This document shows positions 20,916-37,996 of a stretch of 64,000 nt of DNA, piece after piece. The position numbers were made by a program, and so were the translations under genes. This DNA is from a phage. The notes under the pieces were generated by a model, which saw only the letters and a program-made list of their open reading frames with translations, did no database searches and was not told the origin of the DNA. The stretch is taken from the sequence record PZ452610.1. The stretch is one strand, 5' to 3'. Every line of letters starts with the position of its first letter. The stretch's first letter is position 1.

Positions 20916-21113
20916 ATGTTTAAACTTCCATCGTTAATCAACGCTATTAAAGGCAATAAAAAGAAAACTGCTATCGCTGCAATAGTTGTAGGTGGCATTA
21001 TTTCATGGAACTTCGGGATTGCACCATTGTTAGTTGCCCATGGTATTATAGTTCCTTCTGTTCCATTGGATACTGTAGTTGATTTGGCCTTTGCTATTAT
21101 AGGGCTTGTTTAA
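20916..21113 (+). CDS. small membrane protein (65 aa); only convincing plus-strand gene
   Basis: Strong TAAGGAG RBS 6 nt upstream; two hydrophobic segments; convergent with gene 61. Confidence 0.45.
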   Translation: MFKLPSLINAIKGNKKKTAIAAIVVGGIISWNFGIAPLLVAHGIIVPSVPLDTVVDLAFAIIGLV

Positions 21114-22132
21114 ATCTTCGAATAACGAGATAATCTCATTTTAGCATGCAACCCACTTGAAATATTCTGTTTCATATATTCTAAAATTTCTTGTGGTGTT
21201 GCATTTTCTTTCATTACCATATCATTCACATCCTTTGATCTCCATGGAGCTCGATCCCAGAACATGACACGTTCGCCTGCATCAACTAATCGCTTCATGC
21301 GAGCTATAGTATCTGGATGCCTAGGTTCATTATCCATTACCCATACCCGACGTTCTTTAAATGGTACCACATCTAAATCTATTGAGCCGCCTGTAATAGC
21401 GATTGCATTGGGTATGAATAAACTATCAATAGGGCCTTCCATTACCCAGACGTCTCCTTCCTTAACACGTTCAACACCATAAATTTTTGTTGCAGACTCA
21501 AACGCTTTAATAGTGATATATTTCTGAGGAGCATCTTTGCGAAGTGCACGTCCTTGAAATGACTCAGCCTTCCCGTCTTTATTAAAAATAGGAATCACTA
21601 AACGTGGTTCGGGAATCTCTTTCTTATACGTACCAGGTTGAATCTTGTTGACCAATTTAGGCCATTCTAATGTGAACCATAATCTGTTCCACGATTCTTT
21701 AGGAATACACCGAGACTTAACATATTTCACAATAGGATGCTCTTCAGGCAGCTTGTCCAGACGAGAACAAGACGGCAAAGAATTTATAGTCTTTTTCTCC
21801 GGTTCTGGTTTATGTTCAGGAACCTTTTCAATCTTTGGTTCCATTCTAGCTTTTTCTTTACGAACTTCCATTAGATATTCGCGATAAAGCTCTTCATCAT
21901 ACTCTTTTAAGTATCCAGAAATTGTATTGTGGTATTGACAGTTATAGCAATGCACATTACCTGGAGTACCACCGTAATACCATCCGCGAGCTTTCATTGC
22001 ATCTGTCTGGGAGTCGCCACAAACTGGACAACGAAACGTTAATTTAAATGTGCTTGAATTATTGATTTGTCTAAAACGAGGGAGGTGAGAAAACGCACGA
22101 TAAGCAAATTCATTATCTATCCATTCAGCCAT
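21110..22132 (-). CDS. 61: DNA primase
   Basis: 340 aa; N-terminal zinc-binding CPVCGD...CYNC motif; matches T4 gp61 length and position. Confidence 0.85.
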   Translation of the reverse strand: MAEWIDNEFAYRAFSHLPRFRQINNSSTFKLTFRCPVCGDSQTDAMKARGWYYGGTPGNVHCYNCQYHNTISGYLKEYDEELYREYLMEVRKEKARMEPKIEKVPEHKPEPEKKTINSLPSCSRLDKLPEEHPIVKYVKSRCIPKESWNRLWFTLEWPKLVNKIQPGTYKKEIPEPRLVIPIFNKDGKAESFQGRALRKDAPQKYITIKAFESATKIYGVERVKEGDVWVMEGPIDSLFIPNAIAITGGSIDLDVVPFKERRVWVMDNEPRHPDTIARMKRLVDAGERVMFWDRAPWRSKDVNDMVMKENATPQEILEYMKQNISSGLHAKMRLSRYSKI

Positions 22133-22145
22133 AGTATTCTCCAGA

Positions 22146-22166
22146 GGCCTTAAATTAATAAGGCCA
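22146..22166. repeat. intergenic hairpin between 61.1-position gene and gene 61
   Basis: GGCCTTA-aattaa-TAAGGCC 7-bp stem in a 39-nt spacer. Confidence 0.35.
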
Positions 22167-22171
22167 TCATA

Positions 22172-22666
22172 TCACAACTTATTAATATTTACTTTAATTC
22201 GCTTTCTTTTCTTGGAAGGAATTTGTTCTGGACCTTTATTTACGACTGCACCTGTAGTTGTTCCTGATGCAATAGCTTGAGGGCTGCCACCTGAATCACC
22301 AGCCACCATATCCTCAAATAAAGGGAGTTCTTTAAATATTTCTTTCTGTTGTTCTTCTGTAATGTTATAGCGGGATGCTACGGCACTCCAGGCAGACATC
22401 ATTGAGGCCATTCCATTAAGACCTGGAACAGTGCTCATCATTCGCTTCATTGAACGAACTGAAGCATGAAAAGGTGTATAAGCCGCTTTCTCTTCAGGAG
22501 TGGAAGGACGTTTAAGAACACTTCCACGTTCATCGATGATTTTGGCTTCGTATGCTTTCCATTCGGTAAAAGGTTTTTGCATTAGTCGAATAAACTTATA
22601 TGCATAAACAGAATCTATTGCAGTGTTAATAATACCCATAGGTACCTCCTGAGTATATTTAATCAA
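22172..22666 (-). CDS. hypothetical protein (164 aa)
   Basis: ORF track; 61.1 position. Confidence 0.55.
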   Translation of the reverse strand: MIKYTQEVPMGIINTAIDSVYAYKFIRLMQKPFTEWKAYEAKIIDERGSVLKRPSTPEEKAAYTPFHASVRSMKRMMSTVPGLNGMASMMSAWSAVASRYNITEEQQKEIFKELPLFEDMVAGDSGGSPQAIASGTTTGAVVNKGPEQIPSKKRKRIKVNINKL

Positions 22667-22856
22667 TTACAAAGATTGCTTTGTCACCATTTATATCTGT
22701 GACTTCATATGTAGTGCCTTCATACTGTGGAATATTCCAAATTACACCGTCATTAGCTTTTACGCTAATATGGCATTGGTGTTTTGAAACAACTTCATAA
22801 TCTTCAAAACTTGTAAAAACACTAATTTTAGAACCAGTGCAAATTGCAGTAGTCAT
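22659..22856 (-). CDS. hypothetical protein (65 aa)
   Basis: ORF track. Confidence 0.45.
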   Translation of the reverse strand: MTTAICTGSKISVFTSFEDYEVVSKHQCHISVKANDGVIWNIPQYEGTTYEVTDINGDKAIFVID

Positions 22857-22857
22857 T

Positions 22858-23517
22858 TTAACCTCGATTCATAAATGCATTAAATATTTGGTCATCAACA
22901 GAAATTTCTAATTCGACTTCAATTGCTTCGGCCTTTTCTTCAGGTGGTAATTCGTATCCACACACTACAATTTTTTCATCGATATCAAAATATACAGAAG
23001 CAATACGATTAATGTTATTTTCAGTTAAGTCCAAATCAACATCAACATCTTTTTGGCCTACACTTAGAGGATAACTAATACGGGTTATTTTATTATCTTT
23101 AACAAAGAGTCCACCAACATACTCTGTACTACGTTTGAAGTTTACACGTTTCCGAATTGAAAGATATGATACATCTTTACCGTGAGCTCGGCTCATAGGA
23201 CATAATGAATAGCTAGAATAAGAGATGTCAAATCCTACACCTTCAATATGAGCCAACGCGTCATGATTAAACCAATTATAATCATATGCCAAATCCATTA
23301 TATTGTAATATGTGAAAGGCACAGGATTAACATCATATGTTGTACCTTTAAAATCTGCCCAGGCAACGATTTCGTTATCTTTAACAATTACAAAAATTAC
23401 ACCAATATGGTATCCTTTATTATTTTCATTCGGCGTTATATTATAACATTGTGCATTAGGAAATTTACCATATTTAAATGGTGCGTTTTTGTGCATATAA
23501 TAAATCATATTATTCAC
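22858..23517 (-). CDS. hypothetical protein (219 aa)
   Basis: ORF track. Confidence 0.55.
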   Translation of the reverse strand: MNNMIYYMHKNAPFKYGKFPNAQCYNITPNENNKGYHIGVIFVIVKDNEIVAWADFKGTTYDVNPVPFTYYNIMDLAYDYNWFNHDALAHIEGVGFDISYSSYSLCPMSRAHGKDVSYLSIRKRVNFKRSTEYVGGLFVKDNKITRISYPLSVGQKDVDVDLDLTENNINRIASVYFDIDEKIVVCGYELPPEEKAEAIEVELEISVDDQIFNAFMNRG

Positions 23518-23803
23518 CTGTGATTTCGGTTACGATATCTTTGTTATCGAAATTAGGGTCACAATACAAAACATAGTTGTACTGCATGATACCGCCAGAC
23601 TTAAGTTGTTCAACAACTTTATTAACCATATTAGGACGGTCTCGTTTAGTGATGTTCATGATATCAGAGAAGATTTGTTGTTCAACATCTTCTTGATTTG
23701 CAGTCATTGACCACTCACAGAGGTCTTTATCATAACCTGCCGTAACTGGAGCCGGTGCACATGATACTGCAAGTAAGATTGCTGCCAATGATAACTTTTT
23801 CAT
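23510..23803 (-). CDS. sp: periplasmic protein with signal peptide; spackle (Sp) candidate
   Basis: 97 aa (same as T4 Sp); N-terminal MKKLSLAAILLAVSCAPA signal peptide; lies between 61 and 41 as sp does. Confidence 0.45.
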   Translation of the reverse strand: MKKLSLAAILLAVSCAPAPVTAGYDKDLCEWSMTANQEDVEQQIFSDIMNITKRDRPNMVNKVVEQLKSGGIMQYNYVLYCDPNFDNKDIVTEITGE

Positions 23804-23832
23804 TTTAACTCCTTAGTTGATTTGATAGGACT

Positions 23833-23862
23833 ACTATACTATAGTCCATCTATAATGTAAAC
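23833..23862 (-). promoter_or_regulatory. early-type promoter with stem-loop
   Basis: Minus strand GTTTAC, 18 bp, TATAGT; GGACTA/TAGTCC palindrome around -10. Confidence 0.5.
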
Positions 23863-23866
23863 AAGT

Positions 23867-24115
23867 TTATTCTTTTTCGCGAATAATAATTACTTGTTGA
23901 GGCTGCTGAGCCGATTTCTTTTCGGCAACGATAGACCAAATTAAAGTTCCAATCCAACCAATCATCGTCCAGTTAAAGAGTAAAGATACAAAGAAGATTG
24001 CTGTTGTGCTTTTTGTGCCACGAATAAGTGCGATTACCCAAGGCAACATGTAAATGATGATTGAACCAATACCTGCGATTAAAACTGCTACTGAACTAGC
24101 TACGAATAATTCCAT
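23867..24115 (-). CDS. Imm-type superinfection immunity membrane protein
   Basis: 82 aa, two TM segments; YMLPWVIALIRG...LLFNWTMIGWIGTLIWSI matches the Imm_superinfect family signature. Confidence 0.6.
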   Translation of the reverse strand: MELFVASSVAVLIAGIGSIIIYMLPWVIALIRGTKSTTAIFFVSLLFNWTMIGWIGTLIWSIVAEKKSAQQPQQVIIIREKE

Positions 24116-24142
24116 GTTAATTTCCTCTTGATTTGTTATGTT

Positions 24143-24172
24143 TATAATATCTTGTTTTAACTTTGGCGTAAA
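24143..24172 (-). promoter_or_regulatory. early-type promoter upstream of Imm-like gene
   Basis: Minus strand GTTTAC, 18 bp, TATTAT. Confidence 0.5.
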
Positions 24173-24176
24173 CCAA

Positions 24177-24545
24177 TTAATTAAATTTGTTTAAACGTTC
24201 AATACACTGGACGTAGTTATTCGCGATTTGTTTCTGGGTAGGCTCTTTACCAGTTGTTTCAACATAACGAATGAATGCGATTTCAGTAGCCTGTAGACAA
24301 TGTTCTTTAACGCGTTGTTCTTTTGACAATGCTACAGTATCAGAGTCACGATAACGTTGAGCATGGGCATCAGCTTGAATCATTCGATTACCTACAGTAA
24401 CCGGGTCTTCCACTTCAACTTTAGGTTGGTCGTACTGTTTAACATTCGGATTGTAAATCAATTGGCCAACGTTATTAGGGATAAAGCCATGGGCACCACA
24501 TCCGGTTAATCCAAATACCATTGCTAAAGCGATTAATTTTTTCAT
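24177..24545 (-). CDS. putative lipoprotein (122 aa)
   Basis: Signal peptide with lipobox LTGC; early promoter upstream. Confidence 0.55.
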   Translation of the reverse strand: MKKLIALAMVFGLTGCGAHGFIPNNVGQLIYNPNVKQYDQPKVEVEDPVTVGNRMIQADAHAQRYRDSDTVALSKEQRVKEHCLQATEIAFIRYVETTGKEPTQKQIANNYVQCIERLNKFN

Positions 24546-24573
24546 TTCAATTTCCTCTGTAGTTGATAGAAAG

Positions 24574-24603
24574 ATAGTAACACAGTATGTGGGGCTTGTA
24601 AAC
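24574..24603 (-). promoter_or_regulatory. early-type promoter upstream of lipoprotein gene
   Basis: Minus strand GTTTAC, 18 bp, TACTAT. Confidence 0.5.
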
Positions 24604-24616
24604 AGTTATTTTAAAA

Positions 24617-24826
24617 TTATCGAAAATCTGCTTCGAAAACTTTCTCGTCATTAACAAATGCTTTAACTAATGCTTTGTTCACTTCAGCAAGTTGTACCGT
24701 AACCCACTCGATTTCTTCGCGATCACCTGATAACATGATATCTTTAGTGAACATCTCACCGCTTTTAAACCAACCGATAAAAGTAACTTTAGTTAATTTG
24801 CTCATATTTCCTCGCAAAATGCCCAT
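24617..24826 (-). CDS. hypothetical protein (69 aa)
   Basis: ORF track. Confidence 0.45.
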   Translation of the reverse strand: MGILRGNMSKLTKVTFIGWFKSGEMFTKDIMLSGDREEIEWVTVQLAEVNKALVKAFVNDEKVFEADFR

Positions 24827-25119
24827 TCAGCGTGATAAACTGTAGCGCCTTTAGTATCATTCATTTGAACTACATCTACCGGAGAAATTACTCGATAGAG
24901 ACGTGGTTCACCTCCATAAGAGCGTGCTGCTCGTCCTGCATAAATCTTTGCTAAACCGATATCTTCAGTAAAGAATACACGATCCAAGTTTTTCTTACGT
25001 CCAGTTTCAGACAGAACTCCTGTTTCTTCAGGAGGACAAAGCATGTTTTCGATGTTAGCTGAACTACTTGAACCGTGATAAAAAATCTTAAATTCTGCTT
25101 TACAATCAATGGTTTTCAT
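24802..25119 (-). CDS. hypothetical protein (105 aa) with YHGS motif
   Basis: ORF track; FYHGSSSS and downstream acidic residues faintly recall H-Y-E class ADP-ribosyltransferases. Confidence 0.5.
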   Translation of the reverse strand: MKTIDCKAEFKIFYHGSSSSANIENMLCPPEETGVLSETGRKKNLDRVFFTEDIGLAKIYAGRAARSYGGEPRLYRVISPVDVVQMNDTKGATVYHAEWAFCEEI

Positions 25120-25145
25120 TTTGTTCTCCGGTAGTTGATAGGTCT

Positions 25146-25174
25146 ATAATAACACAACTACCGGAGAAGTAAAC
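25146..25174 (-). promoter_or_regulatory. early-type promoter with stem-loop (repeated cassette)
   Basis: Minus strand GTTTAC, 17 bp, TATTAT; CCGGTAGTTG/CAACTACCGG 10-bp stem encloses -10; near-copy at 58247-58304. Confidence 0.5.
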
Positions 25175-25549
25175 TTAAAAACGTAATTTAGATATATCTG
25201 CGTTGATTTCGTTTTGGTTTGCGTCGTATGCAATTAAACGAACCGCTTTAGATGGGTCATTCAATGCATAGAAATGATGGAACATTGCTCGAACGATATC
25301 ACCATTTACGAGTTCTACCTGGATAGGAGAACCTTTTTCGAGTTGGAAATGTTCATAAGCTTTGATGGTTCGCAGATAATCAAGTTTTTGATTTCCAGCT
25401 CCAACAATTTGTACGATACGTTTGCCCATGTTTTCCATACGAGATACAATAGTTTTAGGAGCAAGAATAACGTAGGTTGCCAGTGGAGAAACTACTTCAA
25501 CAGTTGTGTTTTCGGTGATTGCAGTAAAAATTGCTTGAGACATATTCAT
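25175..25549 (-). CDS. hypothetical protein (124 aa)
   Basis: ORF track; AGGA RBS; promoter at 25579-25608. Confidence 0.5.
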   Translation of the reverse strand: MNMSQAIFTAITENTTVEVVSPLATYVILAPKTIVSRMENMGKRIVQIVGAGNQKLDYLRTIKAYEHFQLEKGSPIQVELVNGDIVRAMFHHFYALNDPSKAVRLIAYDANQNEINADISKLRF

Positions 25550-25578
25550 AATGTTTTCCTCTTGGTTGGTGTAAGTAC

Positions 25579-25608
25579 ATCATATCATGCCTAGAGGAAG
25601 ATGTAAAC
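25579..25608 (-). promoter_or_regulatory. early-type promoter directly after gene 41 hairpin
   Basis: Minus strand GTTTAC, 18 bp, TATGAT. Confidence 0.4.
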
Positions 25609-25615
25609 CCAGAAA

Positions 25616-25631
25616 GGAGACCGAAGTCTCC
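25616..25631 (-). terminator. UUCG-tetraloop hairpin after gene 41 (weak U-run)
   Basis: Minus strand GGAGAC-UUCG-GUCUCC 6 nt after gene 41 stop; only UUU follows. Confidence 0.4.
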
Positions 25632-25637
25632 TTTTTA

Positions 25638-27080
25638 TTAAAATTTTAACTCATTGGCTAAGCTATCTAGGTCAGCACGTGTTGCTTTGGCTTTACCTAC
25701 GCGTTCCGTACGATTCACCTCTGCCTGACGCATCTGAGCACCTGCGTTTTCATTTACTGTGTTAGGTGTGTTCATGCCTTCTTGCTCAATCTCAATCCAT
25801 TTCTGGTTGCCTTTACGTACACCCATCAGGAATTTATTCCACTTATTCTTATCGCCGTATCGTGATTTGATTTGTTTGATAAGTTGTTGTTCAGCTTGTG
25901 CAAGTTCTTCGGTTTCAATTACAGCCAACATGAAATCCGCCGTTGCTGGTAAACCTGCTGATTCTGCAATATCACTCATGTTCATGTCTGAAGCATCCCA
26001 TGCTGCACGTCCTACTTGAGCTGCAGTCCATAGAACTGTTTCAGATTCTACTGCTAATGCACGAAGTTCTTCTGCGATAGCTTTAACTAATGTGTAGCTA
26101 TTTTCAGTGTAAACTCTGATACGACAAGACCCACAAATACCTAAGTAATCAACCATGATTACAGATGGTACAAAGTTCTTCTTAAGTTTTAACTCATTAA
26201 GCAATGCACGAAATGTATTAGCATTAGCTCCACCAGTAGGATACTGTTTAACTACTAAACGTCCTAATGTTGTTTTTGAACGCCATTTTTCCATCTTGGC
26301 TTTATATTCAGCATAAGATACGTTACCATCATCAATATCATCAAGTGATACGTCAAGCATGTTTGCATCTATACGCTTAGCACAAACTTCTTCAGCCATT
26401 TCCATAGAAATATAAAGAACGTTATGACCTGTTTGAAGATAATCTGCAGCAAGTGAACAAAGGCCTAAAGATTTACCAACGTTAACACCGGCCATTAAAA
26501 CGTTCAGTGTACCTGTTTCTGCACCACCTTTGGTGATTTTATTCAGAATGTTTAATTTGAACGGGACCTTACGTGCTTTATTTAGATAAGAAAGCCAGCG
26601 TGCTTCATAATCTTCCATCCAGTCATGGCCAACATAACTATCAAACGAAATTGAAAGTGCTTGACGCATAATATCAGGAATAGCTCCTACGTCAGGCATT
26701 TTCTTGTTACGTTGTTCTGGAGGTAGTTCAGCATTAGACTGAATCTCAATGATTTTGGATGTAGCATTATACATCGCTTTTTGCTGGACATATTTCTCAG
26801 TTTCTTTAACCAACCATTCATGGTCTTCAGGAGTATCAGCCAATTTTTCAATTAGGTCTGAAGTTCCTTTATATTCGGCTTCAGTTAAAGAACTGTTATC
26901 TAAAGCCACCTTTAACGCATTGATAGATGGCATTGCATTATATTCGTTAACGTGGCTCTTTATAATTTTAAAGACATTTTTTGCCGGTCCACGCTCAAAA
27001 TACTCAGAATCCATATAAGGCCAGACCTTAGAAAAATAAGCCTGGTCATATACGAGATGAGACAAAATAATTTCTACCAC
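25638..27080 (-). CDS. 41: replicative DNA helicase (DnaB-like)
   Basis: 480 aa; Walker A GVNVGKS; order 41-40-uvsX as in T4. Confidence 0.9.
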   Translation of the reverse strand: MVEIILSHLVYDQAYFSKVWPYMDSEYFERGPAKNVFKIIKSHVNEYNAMPSINALKVALDNSSLTEAEYKGTSDLIEKLADTPEDHEWLVKETEKYVQQKAMYNATSKIIEIQSNAELPPEQRNKKMPDVGAIPDIMRQALSISFDSYVGHDWMEDYEARWLSYLNKARKVPFKLNILNKITKGGAETGTLNVLMAGVNVGKSLGLCSLAADYLQTGHNVLYISMEMAEEVCAKRIDANMLDVSLDDIDDGNVSYAEYKAKMEKWRSKTTLGRLVVKQYPTGGANANTFRALLNELKLKKNFVPSVIMVDYLGICGSCRIRVYTENSYTLVKAIAEELRALAVESETVLWTAAQVGRAAWDASDMNMSDIAESAGLPATADFMLAVIETEELAQAEQQLIKQIKSRYGDKNKWNKFLMGVRKGNQKWIEIEQEGMNTPNTVNENAGAQMRQAEVNRTERVGKAKATRADLDSLANELKF

Positions 27081-29244: not shown

Positions 29245-30144
29245 TTATTCCTCGATTACGACATCTTCATATTTAGGTATATTATACGGTGAAGAAATTA
29301 AAGCATTAAAGTAGATGAACTCACCAAGACCTGGATGAAATACTTCTTCAGGATTTTCGAAATATTGAATCTTCGGACGTCCTTTAAGAATTTGATAGTA
29401 CTCAGTTTTAGTTGGTTTAAAAATTCGAATCAACGCTTCTTCAGGATACTTATTTCTGTCGAAGCTATTATTTGGATCGGTTATATAAAGCGGTTGACCT
29501 AATTGAATTGCGCATTCAACAACTTGTTCAAAACGATAGCATGGGTCACTAATTCGAAATGGATGAAAAATACCATCTAGATGAATAGGAGCCAAATCAC
29601 CTACAAGACGCTGCATGATGGAAGGACGTATAACTTTCTGCGTTACGATAATCTTATTACCATCTGCACCTGCGTTAACCAGCACTTCTTTTTGACGTTC
29701 ATTCAACACAGTAGTTTGAAGTGAACGATTAACCGACAACATATCAGTTTTTAAGAATTCGTCAATATAAAAACGTGGTTTATTAGGGTCTGCAGTGATA
29801 TTGAAATTGAATTCCACATCAAAAGCGCCGTCATATCCAGTGATATCTGTGATTAAAAAATCACAATCATAATAAGCAATTAATGAATCAACAACAAATT
29901 CATTTTCAGACCAGAAATATTTACGAGTGTTATACGCGTTATCTTTATACCATAATGGAACAAACTTAAATTCTGGAAAAAGACGTTCGCATTCTTTAAT
30001 ATCAGATGCATTACGTGGATATGTAATCACATCACCCGGATTAGCACGGTGCAAATGAAGTTGGAAGTTGCCATCCTTAAGGATAGCATACTGTCCAGTT
30101 TCATAAGACCGCATACTCAAGATTGGTACGCGGAAAATAGCCAT
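29245..30144 (-). CDS. hypothetical protein (299 aa); positional replacement of beta-gt, possible GT-A-like DxD motif
   Basis: ORF track; LIAYYDCDFLITD resembles hydrophobic strand + DxD; not similar to T4 beta-gt. Confidence 0.5.
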   Translation of the reverse strand: MAIFRVPILSMRSYETGQYAILKDGNFQLHLHRANPGDVITYPRNASDIKECERLFPEFKFVPLWYKDNAYNTRKYFWSENEFVVDSLIAYYDCDFLITDITGYDGAFDVEFNFNITADPNKPRFYIDEFLKTDMLSVNRSLQTTVLNERQKEVLVNAGADGNKIIVTQKVIRPSIMQRLVGDLAPIHLDGIFHPFRISDPCYRFEQVVECAIQLGQPLYITDPNNSFDRNKYPEEALIRIFKPTKTEYYQILKGRPKIQYFENPEEVFHPGLGEFIYFNALISSPYNIPKYEDVVIEE

Positions 30145-30860
30145 TAGTCAAGGAATCCTTTAACATAATCAAAATCACGTTCAAACACATGGGCACTTAC
30201 CATGGTATGAGTATAATCACCAACTTCTACCCCACATTCGTTAGCGATATAATGAAGTAATTTTCCTTGGAGATAAAAATCCAACTGCATAACAACAGCA
30301 CAGTTCTGAGAACGCATATGACAGTGGGTATAAAGCTTACCATCACGAATATAATAAGTCACTGAGTCAGTACATGGATATTCAAGCGTTTCGTCCGAAT
30401 CAAGCAAAGCCTGATCAGAACTTTCTAGAATTTGGAACACAACTCTTCGAGAGTTAGGCTTCTCTTTAAGTTCTTTTAGAAGAGCTGGTAATTGGGCCGC
30501 AATGCGAGGACCATAGAAAGTGTTGAAGTTCGCCGGCAAAACATCTGATTTTGGTTTAGAAATAAATTTAGCGACATTAGGATATGCCTTAAACGCTTCT
30601 TCTGCGTTGGTACCACCAGAAATCATAAACTTCCAGAAGTCTTCGGCATATTCATAAGAGATGCGGTTAATACGTGGGTCGGTCATTTTGAATGATGATG
30701 GAGTGTCAACAACTACTGTCATAGACCCAATTTCATTACAACGTCCAATACGAGAATCAGTTACGAATTCCGGGTTTTCTAAAATTTCACGATTGACTGC
30801 TTTAAATGCGGTTTGAAAATCTGCGGCTTTGATATATTTCATTGTGTTATGTTTTCCCAT
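30144..30860 (-). CDS. 42: dCMP hydroxymethylase (thymidylate synthase family)
   Basis: 238 aa; catalytic Cys in EYPCTDS; T4 position. Confidence 0.85.
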   Translation of the reverse strand: MGKHNTMKYIKAADFQTAFKAVNREILENPEFVTDSRIGRCNEIGSMTVVVDTPSSFKMTDPRINRISYEYAEDFWKFMISGGTNAEEAFKAYPNVAKFISKPKSDVLPANFNTFYGPRIAAQLPALLKELKEKPNSRRVVFQILESSDQALLDSDETLEYPCTDSVTYYIRDGKLYTHCHMRSQNCAVVMQLDFYLQGKLLHYIANECGVEVGDYTHTMVSAHVFERDFDYVKGFLD

Positions 30861-32355: not shown

Positions 32356-32742
32356 TTATAGATTCGGTTTATATGATTTAAATGTTTCGAATTCGCCTTT
32401 ATTCATAAGAGCTTTGAATTCGTCAGGACGCATAGCTTTGTCGTCGATAATCCAATCATATACTGGTTTATGTGTTAGCAAATTATGGTACTTCAAACCA
32501 ATGTTTTCCAAGTTCTGAATCAGACTTGGGAGAATGTCAATTGCTATACGACCAGGACCTACTGACTTCATACCGCGAGCAGTGTAAAGCGTTATGGTAT
32601 GCCCTGCATCATACAGGGCATTAATAGCAGTCACCATTTCGACGTCTGGTTTGAAGTTCACGTAATCACGATTGTTATTCCACTCTGTTATACAATCATC
32701 GACATCAAAACAAAGATTAAGCATGTTTTCTACACGGTGCAT
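32356..32742 (-). CDS. HAD-superfamily phosphatase (small)
   Basis: FDVDDCITEW is HAD motif I (DxD); TAATG overlap with upstream gene stop. Confidence 0.55.
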   Translation of the reverse strand: MHRVENMLNLCFDVDDCITEWNNNRDYVNFKPDVEMVTAINALYDAGHTITLYTARGMKSVGPGRIAIDILPSLIQNLENIGLKYHNLLTHKPVYDWIIDDKAMRPDEFKALMNKGEFETFKSYKPNL

Positions 32743-34427
32743 TAGATTCGTTCCCATTGATGAGTGATATCGCCACCGATTGGACGATAAGAAACACCAG
32801 TTTCTTTATCAGTTAGTACCCATTTACCAGGATTTTTTGTAATCAGAGTAGCCGTTACAGGTTCTGCTACGTCATAACTAATAGAGCCGTCCTGAAGTAC
32901 ACGGCCCATGTTACGTAATTGCTTAGTCAGAAGTTCCATACCTTTATAATATGCGGCTACCGCTTTAAGTGGATTATTCTTGAAATAACCACCTAATGCA
33001 ATCCAGATAATTGCTACAGCCAAATGATGATACTCGTTAAACGAACTCATCTTTCCATATTTGTAAACTAATGGATTGATGTTAATAGTCACATTACAAG
33101 TTGTTTCGTCAATAGTAAACTGTCCCCAGGTCGGATTAGCGTTGAATTCATCATAACCTGAAACAGCATAAAGCACTTTAGCTTCATCATACAATTTTGG
33201 CCCGTAAATCTTGGTTTCGCCAAAATATCCACGAGGGTCGATAAACTTGACTTCGCCGTTATCAGTAATCATAGTATTACTGAAGTTCGGGTCACCGTGA
33301 ATAACAGAGTACTGTCCCTGAGAACGGGTATGATAACGAATAAGATGTTCTAAAGCTTGCTTCAGCATTGGCTTCAGACGTCCAATCTTAGTGTAGTTCA
33401 CGTGTGTGATTTTACCAAATGAATCAATCAATGGCTGAATGCTTTCACAACGATCAATAACTTTCGTATAGAACTCTTTAGTGAAATCACGGCGAACAGT
33501 TTCAGGACTTACAAAATAAGTGTCTGTGCTGAATTTCAGTGCATCTAAAATTGCATCAACAATTTGTGGACGAGCAAGACTTGATTTGGATTTAATATAT
33601 TCAAATGCTGGCTTACCTTTAATACGTTCCATTTCAAAATTATTTTCATTTACCGAAACTAACTGAGGAACTGAATCTGATTTCACTTTCAAATACCATG
33701 AAATCTCATCTTTTTGAAGAGCTCGACCTTGTTCGGTTAACGCGAATTTAGTTACAGTTTCTTCGCCAATTTCAACTGCATTAAAACTACGATTAAGTTC
33801 ACGAACTTCATGAGCTTTTTCAAGTTTAGGCATATCACCTAAATCAATTAGATTCATAAGCTCTGATTTATTGAATGCACTGCCGTAAAGGAATTCTACG
33901 AAATCACGTCCTTTGCAGTATTCATGAATTTCCTCATCAGTAGAACCCATGTAGAATTCCCAGTCTTTGAACTGATAAATTCCTACAACATTACCGCCTG
34001 TTGAACCTACGTTAGTGATATTTTCACCATCGAAATTATATCGACATTCATCACCCTTAACATAGATTGCGTTAACATTCCAAGACCATGAACCAAAATC
34101 AGGAATAATATCACACCAGTTAACAATTACGTTATGGCCATCTAAATCTTTGTATAATTTAGCAAGAGCATAAGCAGAACCATACGCTTCATCAACTGTA
34201 CGAATAGTCACATTGAACCCTTCTTGCTCGCAATAAGCTCGAACAGTTTCAGCAAATTTTGAATGAACTACTACAATAATTTCATCTGCGCCAAGGTCAG
34301 AATAAATTGTATACAAATTGCTCAGAATAGTGTCTTGTTTATAGTTAACAAGAACTTTTGGAATATGATGCGTTATTGGATACAAACGAGTTGCCAGTCC
34401 AGCACCAAGAATAACAGCTTTTTTCAT
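32742..34427 (-). CDS. bifunctional sugar-1-phosphate nucleotidylyltransferase / APH-like sugar kinase
   Basis: 561 aa; N-terminal VILGAGLATRLYPITHHIPKVLV (RmlA/GalU/MurU-type NTase); C-terminal HGDPNFSNTMI...KFIDPRG (APH/choline-kinase-like catalytic loop). Confidence 0.7.
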   Translation of the reverse strand: MKKAVILGAGLATRLYPITHHIPKVLVNYKQDTILSNLYTIYSDLGADEIIVVVHSKFAETVRAYCEQEGFNVTIRTVDEAYGSAYALAKLYKDLDGHNVIVNWCDIIPDFGSWSWNVNAIYVKGDECRYNFDGENITNVGSTGGNVVGIYQFKDWEFYMGSTDEEIHEYCKGRDFVEFLYGSAFNKSELMNLIDLGDMPKLEKAHEVRELNRSFNAVEIGEETVTKFALTEQGRALQKDEISWYLKVKSDSVPQLVSVNENNFEMERIKGKPAFEYIKSKSSLARPQIVDAILDALKFSTDTYFVSPETVRRDFTKEFYTKVIDRCESIQPLIDSFGKITHVNYTKIGRLKPMLKQALEHLIRYHTRSQGQYSVIHGDPNFSNTMITDNGEVKFIDPRGYFGETKIYGPKLYDEAKVLYAVSGYDEFNANPTWGQFTIDETTCNVTININPLVYKYGKMSSFNEYHHLAVAIIWIALGGYFKNNPLKAVAAYYKGMELLTKQLRNMGRVLQDGSISYDVAEPVTATLITKNPGKWVLTDKETGVSYRPIGGDITHQWERI

Positions 34428-34468: not shown

Positions 34469-34612
34469 CTAGTTAAAGCATTCATACTTTGCTTGTAGTC
34501 CAATCATAATCCATCCAATTACAAGTGTTGGAATCATTACTGGAGCCGTTAAGCTCCAGTAGATAGTCATGACAAGCATCAATAGTAAAAGTCCTATTGT
34601 TATTGCTTTCAT
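34469..34612 (-). CDS. small membrane protein (47 aa)
   Basis: Sub-threshold ORF MKAITIGLLLLMLVMTIYWSL...; ATGA overlap with SIS gene stop. Confidence 0.35.
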   Translation of the reverse strand: MKAITIGLLLLMLVMTIYWSLTAPVMIPTLVIGWIMIGLQAKYECFN

Positions 34613-35244
34613 TGTTCGCCTCGTAACATGGCACCTAGTGCACCGCCTGGATGGAACTTAAGAAAGTCATTAGAGGTAAATCCACGTTCAGACGAAAGGT
34701 TGATAGCAAACGTATCGATAAGCGCTAACAACAATGTAGTGGACATAGTCGGAGCCAGAGAATTCTCATCAACCTCTACCGCGATGCCTGTACAGAAAGA
34801 GTAATCAAAAAGGGCTTCATTTTCTTGCGGAATGTCTGGGTTACAATGCAACAGAATCTGTTTGACATTTGGACGAATCATTTTAAGATGCTTAGCCACG
34901 CCTATCATTTCTTCAGTCTTACCAGAACGACTAATATGAATCAACACATCATTAGGCGCAATGAATCCTGCATCACCGTGAGAATAATGCCCAGTGTTCA
35001 AGTACATACTCGGGATACCGAGTGAAGCAAATGTCTCAGAAGCTTTAGTTGCAATATTAGCATTCTTACCAACACCTGTAATAATTACTCGGCTTTCATA
35101 ATTACTAAGTCCAGGGCGTCGAAGAGTTTCTAGAATAGCATTATAACGAGCAGGGTTTTGACTAATTACTTTGGCCATAGCGGCCAAAGAAGAAGCTTGT
35201 TTTATGATTGCGTCAATAGCGATAGTAATAGGAGTAGTTTTCAT
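34609..35244 (-). CDS. SIS-domain sugar-phosphate isomerase (KdsD/GutQ-like arabinose-5-phosphate isomerase, no CBS domains)
   Basis: 211 aa; GVGKNANIATK...HGDAGFI...LIHISRSGKTEE...FHPGGALG parallels the KdsD SIS domain. Confidence 0.7.
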   Translation of the reverse strand: MKTTPITIAIDAIIKQASSLAAMAKVISQNPARYNAILETLRRPGLSNYESRVIITGVGKNANIATKASETFASLGIPSMYLNTGHYSHGDAGFIAPNDVLIHISRSGKTEEMIGVAKHLKMIRPNVKQILLHCNPDIPQENEALFDYSFCTGIAVEVDENSLAPTMSTTLLLALIDTFAINLSSERGFTSNDFLKFHPGGALGAMLRGEQ

Positions 35245-35284: not shown

Positions 35285-37996
35285 TCAAAAATCGAACATA
35301 TCGAACAGAGATGCTTTCTTCTCGTAATCGAGTTTCGCTGCTGATGTGAATCCTTCAAGTGGTTTAATAAATGTCTTCTCAAGGAGAACAGTGTAGTCCA
35401 TCCAATGAAGTACGTCATCTTTAATTAAATCTGTGATTTCAGTACCAGAAGGCCATGCGATACATTTATCACCGAACGGGTTTCCTTCACGTAAAGGCAG
35501 AACATATACTTTTTCACCTTCTACAACTTGTGGAGCATCAATATTACCTTTGATAGCTCTGTTATATGTCAGAATTCCACGAATATGGAACGGACATTTA
35601 GGACCAGGGAATCCACCTACATCATATTTAGCAATGTTATTCGCAGAAGATACCGACGCGATGCTAATATAATTCAATTGACGGAATTCTTTTTCAAACT
35701 CTTTAAAATATTCTTGTAATGATTCTTCACCTTCTTGAAGCATACGACGAATACATTCTTTAAGAGCTTTCTGTACTGCTTTAGGGGTCGAAGATTTCTG
35801 AGTCTCTAGACCCATGATTTTGAGTTTAGGCTCAGCGTAACGAGTACCTTCCATATCCCACACGTTTAATGCGTAACGTTTCTTACCAGTCCAGAATCCA
35901 CCAATACCTTTAGAACCGAGCGGAGGACCAGCGATAGCTTCTCGGTCCATGAACATTAAGTGTTGTTTATTGTTCATGTATTCACACATTTCACGGAAAC
36001 CTCTATCAATAGCAGGTTCCATACGTTCACGAGCGAACTTATCTAAGAAGTCTACCCAATGGTTGGTATCACGGAATTTAGATTCACCAACCTTATCGAT
36101 AATTTTATCAGCAGATACGTAAATAGAGTCTGTATCACCATAAAGAACGAAAGCTTCACCTTCTGTACCACAAACTTCGTTCAGATATTCATTAACTTTA
36201 CGTTCAATCCACTGTAAAGCCATTTGACCAAATGTTGTGATTGCAGTAGCATTACGCAAATCGTAATAACGGAACCAAACGTTGCCAAGTGCACCATAAA
36301 GTGAGTTGATAAGCAATTTACGGTTAATTTGTGCAGTCATACCTGCAACTTCAGTACGTTGAGCTCTAAACAACATTTCATTAAGAGATTTAGCAGACAA
36401 CTTTTTAATCTTTTCTTTAATCTCGTCAGTGAAGTCGAAACGATAATCAACATCTAATGGTTCGTCAACAGAAAGATTAGGATTATGCAACGCCTCTTTA
36501 ATTATTTCACCATTACGTTGAGCCGCAAGCATATAACCTTTATGTTCTTTACGTTGATTAAAGACCTTAGTGATTTCAGTTGGAACTACACCATCACGGT
36601 CTTTATAATACATCATGCCATTAGGAGAACAACTGTACACATCTGAAGGACGTTCAGCGATTGCGTTAATATAATCATGCAGTGGAGCTACTTTAAACGT
36701 TCCTGCTATTGTTTCCGGGCTAATATTCACTTGGCGAATAATACTTGGATACAGAGATGTAAGGTCGAAACTCATTACATATTTGTATCGATTTGGAATA
36801 GGTTCCTTAACAAAAGCGCCAGGATAAGGTTGAACCGGGTGAGAACGACCTTGTGGAATCACCTTGTTCTGCTCTTTAAGGCTATTAAAAATAATAGCAT
36901 CCCATGTTTTAATTGGGCTAAACACAGATTGAATCTGTATCTTAGCATAATAACCCATGTCCAAACTCAAGTTGATGAACTGACGCTTAGCATCAATTTG
37001 CAATACACGATACACGTCGATAATGTTATAAGAAATATATCGTTGGTGATTGCTTTCACGAAGCTTAGAAATAGGGCCGTCATATTTCAGTTTACCAACG
37101 TTCAATTCAAATTCTGAAATGTAATCTAGAGAATACGACGGTTGATTGGTAAAAGAGAATTTTTTGTAAAGGTCGATATAATCAAGAACAGAGATACCGA
37201 ACAATGTAATGATTTCACGAGAACCATACATGTTTTCGATAACTTTAACACGAGTTTTACGATGCGGTGATAAACGTTTCGCAGTAGATTCGCCAAAAAT
37301 ATTCTTGATTCGGTTATACACATATGGAATATCAAATGACTCAACGTTCCATCCAGTCAAAATGACAGGAGTTTTCTGTTGCCAGAAGTTGAGATATTCC
37401 ATCAACAATTCTTTTTCGTTATCGAACGGCATATAAATGATTTTATCGATAATTTCAGATGGAACTTCATCACCGCCTTGTTCTTGAAGCTTAGCAGCGA
37501 TTTCAATAGACCATTCTTCTACATTACCATATGGAGAATTCAATAGATCAAATACGTAGAACCTGTCGTCAATTGAGTCATAATGGGTGATAGCATCAAT
37601 CGGATGTTTTGCTTGTGATGGCTCAGGGAACCCATCCGGAGATGTTACTTCGATGTCGAAGTTAGCCACACGAATTTTTGTATGGTCGTATTTGATTTCA
37701 TAGTTATAAGTGTCAGACAAATACGCCAATTTGAAATCGTCCATGCCAAGTGCTTCAAGTCCGATATCTTCCATGCGTTTAATCCATTGGGAGGCATCAC
37801 GCATATTAGCGAACAACTTACGAGTACACGGCTTACCGTAGATATCGAAATATTTCGTAGCCTGACTTTCCGGACAATGAGCAAACAGTGATGGTTTATA
37901 TTCTACTTCACGAGTACGTTCACGGCCATTAGAATCGATGTAACGTTCAAAAATTGAATCACCAATCTGTTCAACCGTTAAGTAAAATTCTTTCAT
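35285..37996 (-). CDS. 43: DNA polymerase (family B) with 3'-5' exonuclease
   Basis: 903 aa; near-colinear with T4 gp43 (MKEFY..., FDIE, YGDTDS motifs). Confidence 0.95.
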   Translation of the reverse strand: MKEFYLTVEQIGDSIFERYIDSNGRERTREVEYKPSLFAHCPESQATKYFDIYGKPCTRKLFANMRDASQWIKRMEDIGLEALGMDDFKLAYLSDTYNYEIKYDHTKIRVANFDIEVTSPDGFPEPSQAKHPIDAITHYDSIDDRFYVFDLLNSPYGNVEEWSIEIAAKLQEQGGDEVPSEIIDKIIYMPFDNEKELLMEYLNFWQQKTPVILTGWNVESFDIPYVYNRIKNIFGESTAKRLSPHRKTRVKVIENMYGSREIITLFGISVLDYIDLYKKFSFTNQPSYSLDYISEFELNVGKLKYDGPISKLRESNHQRYISYNIIDVYRVLQIDAKRQFINLSLDMGYYAKIQIQSVFSPIKTWDAIIFNSLKEQNKVIPQGRSHPVQPYPGAFVKEPIPNRYKYVMSFDLTSLYPSIIRQVNISPETIAGTFKVAPLHDYINAIAERPSDVYSCSPNGMMYYKDRDGVVPTEITKVFNQRKEHKGYMLAAQRNGEIIKEALHNPNLSVDEPLDVDYRFDFTDEIKEKIKKLSAKSLNEMLFRAQRTEVAGMTAQINRKLLINSLYGALGNVWFRYYDLRNATAITTFGQMALQWIERKVNEYLNEVCGTEGEAFVLYGDTDSIYVSADKIIDKVGESKFRDTNHWVDFLDKFARERMEPAIDRGFREMCEYMNNKQHLMFMDREAIAGPPLGSKGIGGFWTGKKRYALNVWDMEGTRYAEPKLKIMGLETQKSSTPKAVQKALKECIRRMLQEGEESLQEYFKEFEKEFRQLNYISIASVSSANNIAKYDVGGFPGPKCPFHIRGILTYNRAIKGNIDAPQVVEGEKVYVLPLREGNPFGDKCIAWPSGTEITDLIKDDVLHWMDYTVLLEKTFIKPLEGFTSAAKLDYEKKASLFDMFDF

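Follow-up and report, generated by a model that had tools for sequence, protein, structure and literature searches.

Three consecutive genes, imm.1, imm and sp, are arranged in this order on the minus strand of the 64,000-nucleotide stretch of phage DNA analyzed here (the window), which is assigned to Mosigvirus and shows 100% identity with typing phages 3, 6 and 13 of E. coli O157. Of these genes, sp (spackle) and imm are the two that T4-like phages are known to use to block superinfection, and imm.1 is the customary lipoprotein gene beside imm. The downstream neighbor of sp is gene 61.2 (positions 22858..23517, minus strand), which encodes the anti-DarT factor AdfA (Pfam AdfA, 1e-119), and the upstream neighbor of imm.1 is dmd (24617..24805, minus strand; Pfam Dmd, 7e-21). 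The gene order 61.2-sp is likewise present in T4, where sp (gene 61.3) is located between 61.2 and 61.4, and the window copy of sp retains its T4 neighbors 61.2 and dmd. With adfA and dmd, the variable region between genes 61 and 41 of the window also carries counter-defense genes. The ORFs on the plus strand of the locus are short and antisense to confirmed genes. No Rfam match is found on either strand of positions 22000-26000, no compositional anomaly is seen at the locus, and PADLOC returns no matches.

The sp gene (23510..23803, minus strand) codes for a 97-amino-acid predicted periplasmic inhibitor of the gp5 lysozyme of the tail spike. Its product matches Pfam T4_Spackle (PF25676) with a score of 145 bits (1.1e-42; curated gathering cut-off 27 bits), spanning residues 1-96 of the 96 profile positions, and is assigned to phrog_1586, which PHROGs labels 'spackle periplasmic'. 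It shares 66% identity with T4 Sp and also matches the PDB spackle chains 6x6o (1e-39) and 7cn6 (1e-33). Residues 1-23 form a hydrophobic N-terminus that is a predicted signal peptide, with cleavage predicted between VTA and GYDKD, the point that aligns with the start of mature T4 Sp in chain 7cn6; this would leave a mature protein of approximately 75 amino acids. These features bear out the proposal of the first-pass annotation that a signal-peptide protein of spackle size is encoded here. Moreover, C29 and C81, which form the Cys29-Cys81 disulfide in T4 Spackle (PMC7677548), are invariant between the two proteins, as are all six residues (S32, M33, T34, A35, Q37 and N76) through which T4 Sp contacts the gp5 lysozyme (PMC7677548).

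Upstream of sp, the imm gene (23867..24115, minus strand) codes for an 82-amino-acid predicted inner-membrane superinfection immunity protein. The first-pass annotation had recognized an Imm-like protein with two transmembrane segments at this position and had proposed a search with Pfam Imm_superinfect (PF14373). This search yields 57.2 bits (1.5e-15) over all 42 profile positions, compared to a curated gathering cut-off of 27.9 bits, and PHROGs places the protein in phrog_1039, 'immunity to superinfection' (1e-30). Both LPWVIALIRG and FNWTMIGWIGTLIW are present in the sequence, which has two hydrophobic blocks (approximately residues 1-34 and 38-64). The identity with T4 Imm is 66% over the full length with a single 1-amino-acid gap, and the two proteins have the C-terminal VIIIREKE tail in common. 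R33 and W50 of T4 Imm, which are needed for exclusion and whose mutation weakens the protein (preprint 10.64898/2026.03.06.709160), are kept as R32 and W49. One copy of imm is present in the window, and the 808 phage records with an imm match have it in 808 places, or exactly one imm each. A search of the PDB with Imm finds no sequence relative.

The third gene, imm.1 (24177..24545, minus strand), codes for a predicted lipoprotein of 122 amino acids that carries the name imm.1 in the RB69 annotation and belongs to phrog_1754. The first-pass annotation had noted the ORF as that of a lipoprotein with an LTGC lipobox, lying consecutively with sp and imm. The ORF is confirmed, and its identity can now be added. 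The protein scores 37.3 bits (3.7e-9) with Pfam DUF5481 (PF17578; curated gathering cut-off 27 bits), is 35% identical to T4 Imm.1, and reaches Tequatrovirus imm.1 genes in a tblastn search at E values of approximately 1e-11. The window and T4 proteins share an L-x-G-C motif and two further cysteines. Judged by these sequence matches, the lipobox protein is an Imm.1 homolog rather than an unrelated envelope protein. The lipobox L-T-G-C occupies residues 13-16 and is followed by Gly at position +2, whereas the T4 protein carries LAGC. Other Imm.1 homologs with an intact N-terminus have lipobox sequences of LTGC, TTGC or LVGC, and one further homolog (P0002) has a plain signal peptide instead of a lipobox. 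By the +2 rule, and given its predicted lipidation, the outer membrane is the probable destination of Imm.1.

Homologs of Imm.1 form eight representative clusters in a full HMMER scan of 1.84 billion proteins (a word-index search finds three proteins), and Imm.1 is found in only the Mosigvirus and Tequatrovirus identity groups. The RB69 group has been stated to lack Imm.1 (PMC5885020). This published absence seems to reflect the low identity of the proteins (35%) and not a true absence. The lipoprotein encoded between gene 43 and imm in phage Moon may be a divergent Imm.1, although its BLASTP match to Imm.1 has an E value of just 0.001 and lies mostly in the signal peptide. An AlphaFold model of Imm.1, made from a three-row alignment, has a pLDDT of 59.7, and confident modeling is limited to a helical hairpin at the C-terminus. 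We found no sequence relative of Imm.1 in the PDB and no paper on its function in a literature search.

Each of the three genes is preceded by its own T4-type early-promoter motif and a Shine-Dalgarno sequence, from which we infer early expression. Upstream of sp (23833..23862, minus strand) the motif reads GTTTACA-17-TATAGT and is followed by the Shine-Dalgarno sequence AAGGAG. The spacer between imm.1 and imm (24144..24173, minus strand) carries GTTTACG-17-TATTAT, and the motif upstream of imm.1 (24574..24603, minus strand) is GTTTACA-17-TACTAT with a TG before the -10 element. For comparison, the early-promoter consensus of T4 and PST in the promoter early stem-loop (PeSL) model is TTTACW-N17-TAYWAT (PMC4122927). 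The pattern GTTTAC-N18-TAYWRT matches the window 10 times, always on the minus strand, where 0.12 matches would be expected from shuffled sequences. Three of these 10 matches fall in the three spacers of sp, imm and imm.1, one in each, and the earlier proposal that every gene has its own early promoter is upheld at the level of motifs. The arrangement in T4 differs in that just 11 bp separate imm.1 from imm and a single promoter motif is located upstream of imm.1. Because of this short distance, T4 has no counterpart of the promoter motif found in the 61-bp spacer between the two genes in the window.

Neither the genes nor their order are new. RB69 is 98.4% identical to the window at the DNA level over 3.6 kb and agrees with it in gene content, order and orientation at the locus, with protein identities of approximately 99%. 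Its GenBank record (AY303349, 2003) names sp, imm and imm.1 at the same locus, as do the RefSeq records of the window's own phage, and approximately 153-156 records of at least 95% identity show the whole layout. The sp-imm-imm.1 arrangement is already known, having been on record for RB69 since 2003 and being present in more than 150 related genomes. The two phages differ at the upstream end of the cluster, where RB69 carries a 70-amino-acid gene, 61.4, between dmd and imm.1. A search of this interval in the window found no match to 61.4, and a deletion of approximately 203 bp relative to RB69 accounts for the missing gene, leaving a dmd-imm.1 spacer of 71 bp in the window versus 274 bp in RB69. 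Our literature search found no paper discussing where imm lies in phages of the RB69 type.

The position of imm within the Mosigvirus genome is distinct from that in other T4-type phages. As the first-pass annotation had noted, imm of T4 is located in the interval between gene 43 and gene 42; the T4 imm.1-imm pair follows gene 43 at a distance of approximately 6 kb from sp. Likewise, gene 43 is followed immediately by imm in VR26 (Gaprivervirus), QL01 (Dhakavirus), Moon (Moonvirus) and ERS-1, although imm.1 is missing between 43 and imm in QL01 and VR26. The hit in ERS-1 was split in two at an odd-looking coordinate, but the genes there follow the usual order 43-imm.1-imm-42.1-42, and imm carries a frameshift. 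The immediate upstream neighbor of imm is imm.1 in ERS-1 and T4 as well as in RB69 and the window, and the unit at the non-T4 site is the imm.1-imm pair, not imm alone, set between dmd/61.4 and sp. The non-T4 position of imm beside spackle, as suggested earlier, is upheld, with the pair as the unit found there.

The site that imm.1-imm occupies in T4, between genes 43 and 42.1, is filled in the window by a SIS-domain gene alone. This gene (34609..35244, minus strand; 211 amino acids; Pfam SIS, 1e-10) is a homolog of RB69 ORF055c by the RB69 annotation, and an arabinose-5-P isomerase-like role has been proposed for it (PMC6024577). Between genes 43 and 42, the window has genes of the SIS, nucleotidyltransferase and U32-peptidase-like types, the counterparts of the arabinosyl-hmC candidate cluster of RB69 (PMC6024577). 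The sugar cassette that was earlier thought to occupy the imm site does so only through its SIS gene; a 42.1 homolog has been retained (34469..34612, minus strand), and the other cassette genes are located on its downstream side. The protein encoded by the 42.1 homolog, of 47 amino acids, shares 57% identity with VR26 gp42.1 (E 8e-17) and 52% with that of T4, and at the DNA level the gene is homologous to the interval from imm to 42 in T4. In T4, 42.1 and imm overlap by 4 bp; in the window, the same 4-bp overlap joins the start of 42.1 to the stop codon of the SIS gene. Dhakavirus QL01 retains imm adjacent to gene 43 despite carrying a homologous sugar gene, and therefore the cassette alone does not force imm out of this site.

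Taken together, these features make it highly probable that the segment is an early-expressed superinfection-exclusion cluster of RB69-like Mosigvirus phages, encoded in the order imm.1, imm, sp. By homology to T4, Sp would be exported to the periplasm soon after infection, where it would bind and inhibit the gp5 lysozyme in the tail spike of a later-arriving phage. Imm would insert in the inner membrane and bind the incoming tape-measure protein (gp29), and this binding would keep the channel for DNA passage into the cytoplasm from forming. Imm.1 is predicted to be a lipid-anchored envelope protein. The exclusion activity of the cluster is expected by analogy to T4, and we infer a link between Imm.1 and Imm from one basis, the adjacency of their genes at both genomic sites. 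One could instead suppose that the 82-amino-acid protein is a generic membrane protein with an Imm_superinfect domain and some other role, such that the cluster would have no exclusion function. The Pfam domain spans just 42 residues and is present, at 35-40% identity, in unrelated phages too, and RB69 and T4 differ in their lysis-inhibition behavior (PMC6832632). However, the end-to-end identity of 66% with T4 Imm includes the VIIIREKE tail, both residues whose mutation weakens T4 Imm are conserved, and the gene is the sole imm in the window and in each related genome, which leaves a generic role very improbable.

With regard to history, the Mosigvirus position of imm is most likely derived because four other genera, represented by T4, VR26, QL01 and Moon, keep imm adjacent to gene 43. 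From a common layout of 43-(imm.1)-imm-42.1, the pair would have come to lie between 61.4/dmd and sp in the Mosigvirus lineage, and the SIS sugar gene would have filled the vacated slot between 43 and 42.1. The opposite polarity, in which the sp-adjacent layout of Mosigvirus is ancestral, appears very unlikely: it has nothing in its favor beyond mosaic, unrooted gene trees, whereas imm lies after 43 and before 42.1 in the four other genera and in ERS-1, and the window retains 42.1 at the old site with the same 4-bp overlap and a different upstream gene. The mosaic nature of the gene trees across the imm region does weaken a simple account in which the pair moved within one lineage. It is possible, if somewhat doubtful, that the 43-adjacent imm was instead lost and replaced by the SIS gene, and that a Tequatrovirus-like imm.1-imm pair was gained laterally by recombination at the early-promoter repeats adjoining sp. 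Consistent with such a gain, the window Imm is closer to that of T4 (66%) than to those of Dhakavirus (55%) or Gaprivervirus (57%), whereas Sp has the opposite pattern (74-75% to Dhakavirus and Gaprivervirus versus 66% to T4) and gp43 is closest to that of Dhakavirus (85% versus 61% for T4). The restriction of Imm.1 to the Mosigvirus and Tequatrovirus groups, with no imm.1 in QL01 and VR26, points the same way. Yet Imm.1 is just 35% identical to its T4 counterpart, so any transfer would be ancient or from an unsampled donor. Furthermore, the neighboring gp41 also has T4 affinity (86%), the whole region is mosaic, and the discordance may represent ordinary patchwork recombination or differences in rate. 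The functional outcome is identical under relocation or re-acquisition.

The early promoter-leader spacers form a repeat family of approximately 60 nt whose members are 63-77% identical in pairwise comparisons, and imm.1-imm may have been shuffled through such repeats at the ends of the cassette, a plausible route. Modules of T4-type phages are reported to be shuffled by means of early-promoter sequences of this type (PeSLs; PMC2839356; PMC4122927). Like the PeSL cassettes described previously (Arbiol et al., 2010, PMC2839356; Comeau et al., 2014, PMC4122927), the window cassette is bounded by early-promoter repeats and resides in a variable region, here between core genes 61 and 41. It differs from them in that no terminator-like stem-loop is detected at its ends. 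No mini-circle junction or donor sequence for the cassette was identified. We also considered whether the promoter travelled with imm.1. CTGTTTACAAG and CTATCAACTAC are common to the motif region at 24574-24603 and the T4 imm.1 promoter region, but this idea was rejected, as the T4 imm.1 promoter (68-71%) is no closer than other spacers. Similarity among the window spacers is about as high as their similarity to the positional counterparts in T4, and they therefore mark neither exact breakpoints of the cassette nor a promoter that travelled with it.

A bolder proposal, which we regard as rather unlikely, is that imm.1-imm is a self-contained mobile module set in early-promoter repeats, that Imm.1 serves with Imm as a third envelope exclusion factor, and that placement next to sp has been selected. 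If true, all exclusion functions would be inherited together within the 61-41 variable region. Regardless, Imm.1 adjoins imm at two different sites and is a reasonable candidate for a superinfection-exclusion partner. Although the value of the locus as a discovery is small, with its genes and positions annotated since 2003, it offers a clean, footprinted case of the reshuffling of a T-even early-gene module at promoter repeats.

Between gene 61 (primase, 21110-22132) and gene 41 (helicase, 25638-27080), where all genes lie on the minus strand, the genes sp (97 aa, 23510-23803), imm (82 aa, 23867-24115) and imm.1 (122 aa, 24177-24545) follow one another. The reading frames, quoted peptide strings and LTGC lipobox from which the first-pass annotation had assembled a cluster of envelope-targeted proteins were all found. 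Its spackle-size protein is indeed spackle: the Pfam profile T4_Spackle matches it from end to end (1.1e-42; 145 bits, cut-off 27), phrog 'spackle periplasmic' matches as well, and its identity to T4 Sp is 66%. Similarly, the proposed Imm signature was borne out by the suggested search with Pfam Imm_superinfect (1.5e-15; 57 bits, cut-off 27.9); phrog 'immunity to superinfection' matches at 1e-30, and the alignment with T4 Imm runs end to end at 66% identity. Judging from its match to Pfam DUF5481 (3.7e-9) and its 35% identity to T4 Imm.1, in an alignment that retains the L-x-G-C lipobox and another two cysteines, the 122-aa lipoprotein is an Imm.1 homolog.

Typing phages 3, 6 and 13 of Escherichia coli O157 share this 3.6-kb interval at 100% identity, and RB69 (genus Mosigvirus) shares it at 98.4%; it is present in full, at 95% identity or more, in about 153-156 phage records. 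The three genes are already named, at identical relative positions, in the RB69 GenBank record AY303349, and RefSeq annotates typing phage 3 with 'spackle periplasmic' and with 'immunity to superinfection'. Thus, the arrangement is typical of RB69-like phages, publicly annotated and already known.

The assignment of a separate early promoter to each gene also holds as a prediction. Each of the three spacers (63, 61 and 71 bp) contains a minus-strand sigma-70-like site followed by a Shine-Dalgarno sequence: on the coding strand, GTTTACA-17-TATAGT for sp (23833-23862), GTTTACG-17-TATTAT for imm and GTTTACA-17-TACTAT for imm.1. Across the 64-kb window, GTTTAC-N18-TAYWRT is matched 10 times, always on the minus strand, where shuffling leads one to expect 0.12; these sites account for three of the matches. 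The motifs fit the T4/PST early consensus TTTACW-N17-TAYWAT (PMC4122927). In T4 the same motif precedes both imm.1 and sp, but the imm.1-imm gap is only 11 bp and lacks one, which makes the separate imm promoter motif a small difference from T4. The sp motif also contains an inverted repeat, GGACTA-TAGTATAG-TAGTCC, spanning the -10 box. Strings like 'GGACTATG' are also present in further early-promoter motifs within the window (2370, 2882, 62446) and may represent a shared regulatory or structural element.

As first proposed, imm occupies a non-T4 position. The T4 order is 43 - imm.1 - imm - 42.1 - 42, with sp elsewhere, between 61.2 and 61.4, whereas here imm adjoins sp; given the identity of the lipoprotein, the new site holds the imm.1-imm pair rather than imm alone, with imm.1 still linked to imm. 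Gene 43 is followed by imm and 42.1 in VR26 (Gaprivervirus), by imm, 42.1 and, further on, an ORF53_52c homolog in QL01 (Dhakavirus), by a lipoprotein gene, imm and 42 in Moon (Moonvirus), and by imm.1, imm, 42.1 and 42 in Escherichia phage ERS-1. Ten further non-Mosigvirus records, those present in two of the match lists, have sp at a distance of about 5.3-6.9 kb from imm or imm.1. There is exactly one imm copy per matching record (808 places in 808 records) and one in the window. Together these layouts make the Mosigvirus position the derived one. In ERS-1 (stretch L008, 2501-2751), imm lies in two overlapping reading-frame pieces, a frameshift or sequencing error; its layout is otherwise T4-like.

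What now occupies the former site, between gene 43 (35285-37996) and gene 42 (30144-30860), accords only in part with the suggestion that the sugar cassette took the place of imm. The interval carries an SIS-domain gene (34609-35244), a 47-aa small membrane-protein gene (34469-34612) and the nucleotidyltransferase-type ORF53_52c (561 aa, 32742-34427), all three on the minus strand, along with a U32-peptidase-like gene and others; the RB69 counterparts have been proposed to act in arabinosyl-hmC synthesis (PMC6024577). The 47-aa frame is a 42.1 homolog (57% identity to VR26 gp42.1, E 8e-17; 52% to T4 42.1), and its DNA can be aligned to the T4 imm-42 interval. Its start overlaps the SIS-gene stop by 4 bp (ATGA), precisely the overlap that T4 42.1 has with the stop of imm, and it is apparently coupled translationally to the SIS gene as T4 42.1 is to imm. 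Since 42.1 is retained after the SIS gene, only the slot between 43 and 42.1 changed occupant, and most of the cassette lies beyond 42.1. Moreover, QL01 retains imm behind gene 43 even though it has a homolog of ORF53_52c (43% identity), so the cassette alone does not explain the move. The original RB69 record divides ORF53_52c between ORF053c and ORF052c; Thomas et al. 2018 (PMC6024577) corrected this for RB69, and the single frame present here agrees with their version.

Early promoter-leader spacers, each about 60 nt long, flank the new site on either side and form a repeat family (63-77% pairwise identity); such elements have been reported as mediators of module exchange among T4-type phages (PMC2839356, PMC4122927). 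Recombination at these repeats would be a reasonable route by which the pair came to lie beside sp. The window and T4 imm.1 promoters are 68-71% similar, no more than unrelated spacers are to one another, so their likeness is not evidence that the promoter travelled with the gene. Of the relocation first envisaged, the derived position stands; as to whether the pair moved within one genome or the cassette was re-acquired from a T4-like donor, pairwise identities are mosaic. Compared with T4, QL01 and VR26, respectively, Imm is 66%, 55% and 57% identical, Sp 66%, 74% and 75%, gp41 86%, 69% and 68%, and gp43 61%, 85% and 76%. These values leave room for re-acquisition, which we nevertheless consider rather unlikely. 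Both histories lead to one functional reading, and with these refinements the first-pass observation and interpretation are correct.

Other features of the 61-41 interval deserve mention. Neither Rfam, searched on both strands of 22000-26000, nor a search for compositional anomaly returned anything. The 61.2 homolog (22858-23517, minus strand) matches Pfam AdfA (anti-DarT factor A, 1e-119), so that, with dmd, the interval unites counter-defence and exclusion genes. Gene 61.4, which in RB69 encodes 70 aa between imm.1 and dmd, is missing at 24546-24616 (spacer of 71 bp versus 274 bp in RB69) and looks polymorphic among Mosigvirus records, which give one-piece or two-piece matches. Between 41 and dmd, a 105-aa homolog of RB69ORF040c (24802-25119, minus strand; phrog_2110, function unknown), whose stop overlaps the dmd start, has no match in Pfam, PDB or PADLOC; by eye, its FYHGSS and YHAEW motifs recall small ADP-ribosyltransferase-like proteins.

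The present alignment contradicts a comparative study (PMC5885020) that lists the RB69 group as lacking Imm.1. By tblastn, imm.1 matches only the Mosigvirus (at least 95%) and Tequatrovirus (about 32-35%) groups, and the family is small, with 3 proteins in a word-index search and 8 representative clusters among 1.84 billion proteins. Imm.1 has no match in PDB or PADLOC, its AlphaFold model is poor (pLDDT 59.7), and we found no paper on its function. The lipobox is present in most homologs, but P0002 has a plain signal peptide in its place. The residue following the lipid-modified cysteine of Imm.1 is Gly, not Asp, which by the E. coli +2 sorting rule predicts outer-membrane transfer. Citrobacter phage Moon (stretch L007, 2022-2462) encodes a 146-aa LTGC-lipobox protein between 43 and imm, the place of T4 imm.1; its similarity to Imm.1 is weak (E = 0.001) and mostly within the signal peptide, and it may be an Imm.1 that has diverged strongly or else an analogous lipoprotein.

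The residues known to matter in T4 are retained in both exclusion proteins. In the T4 Sp-gp5 complex, Sp has a C29/C81 disulfide and contacts gp5 through S32, M33, T34, A35, Q37 and N76 (PMC7677548); all eight residues are invariant here. According to a 2026 preprint (10.64898/2026.03.06.709160), gp29, the tape-measure protein, is bound by T4 Imm, whose mutations R33A and W50A weaken exclusion; both residues are conserved, as R32 and W49. By homology, periplasmic Sp would block the lysozyme in a second phage's tail, and inner-membrane Imm would block channel formation by that phage's tape-measure protein.
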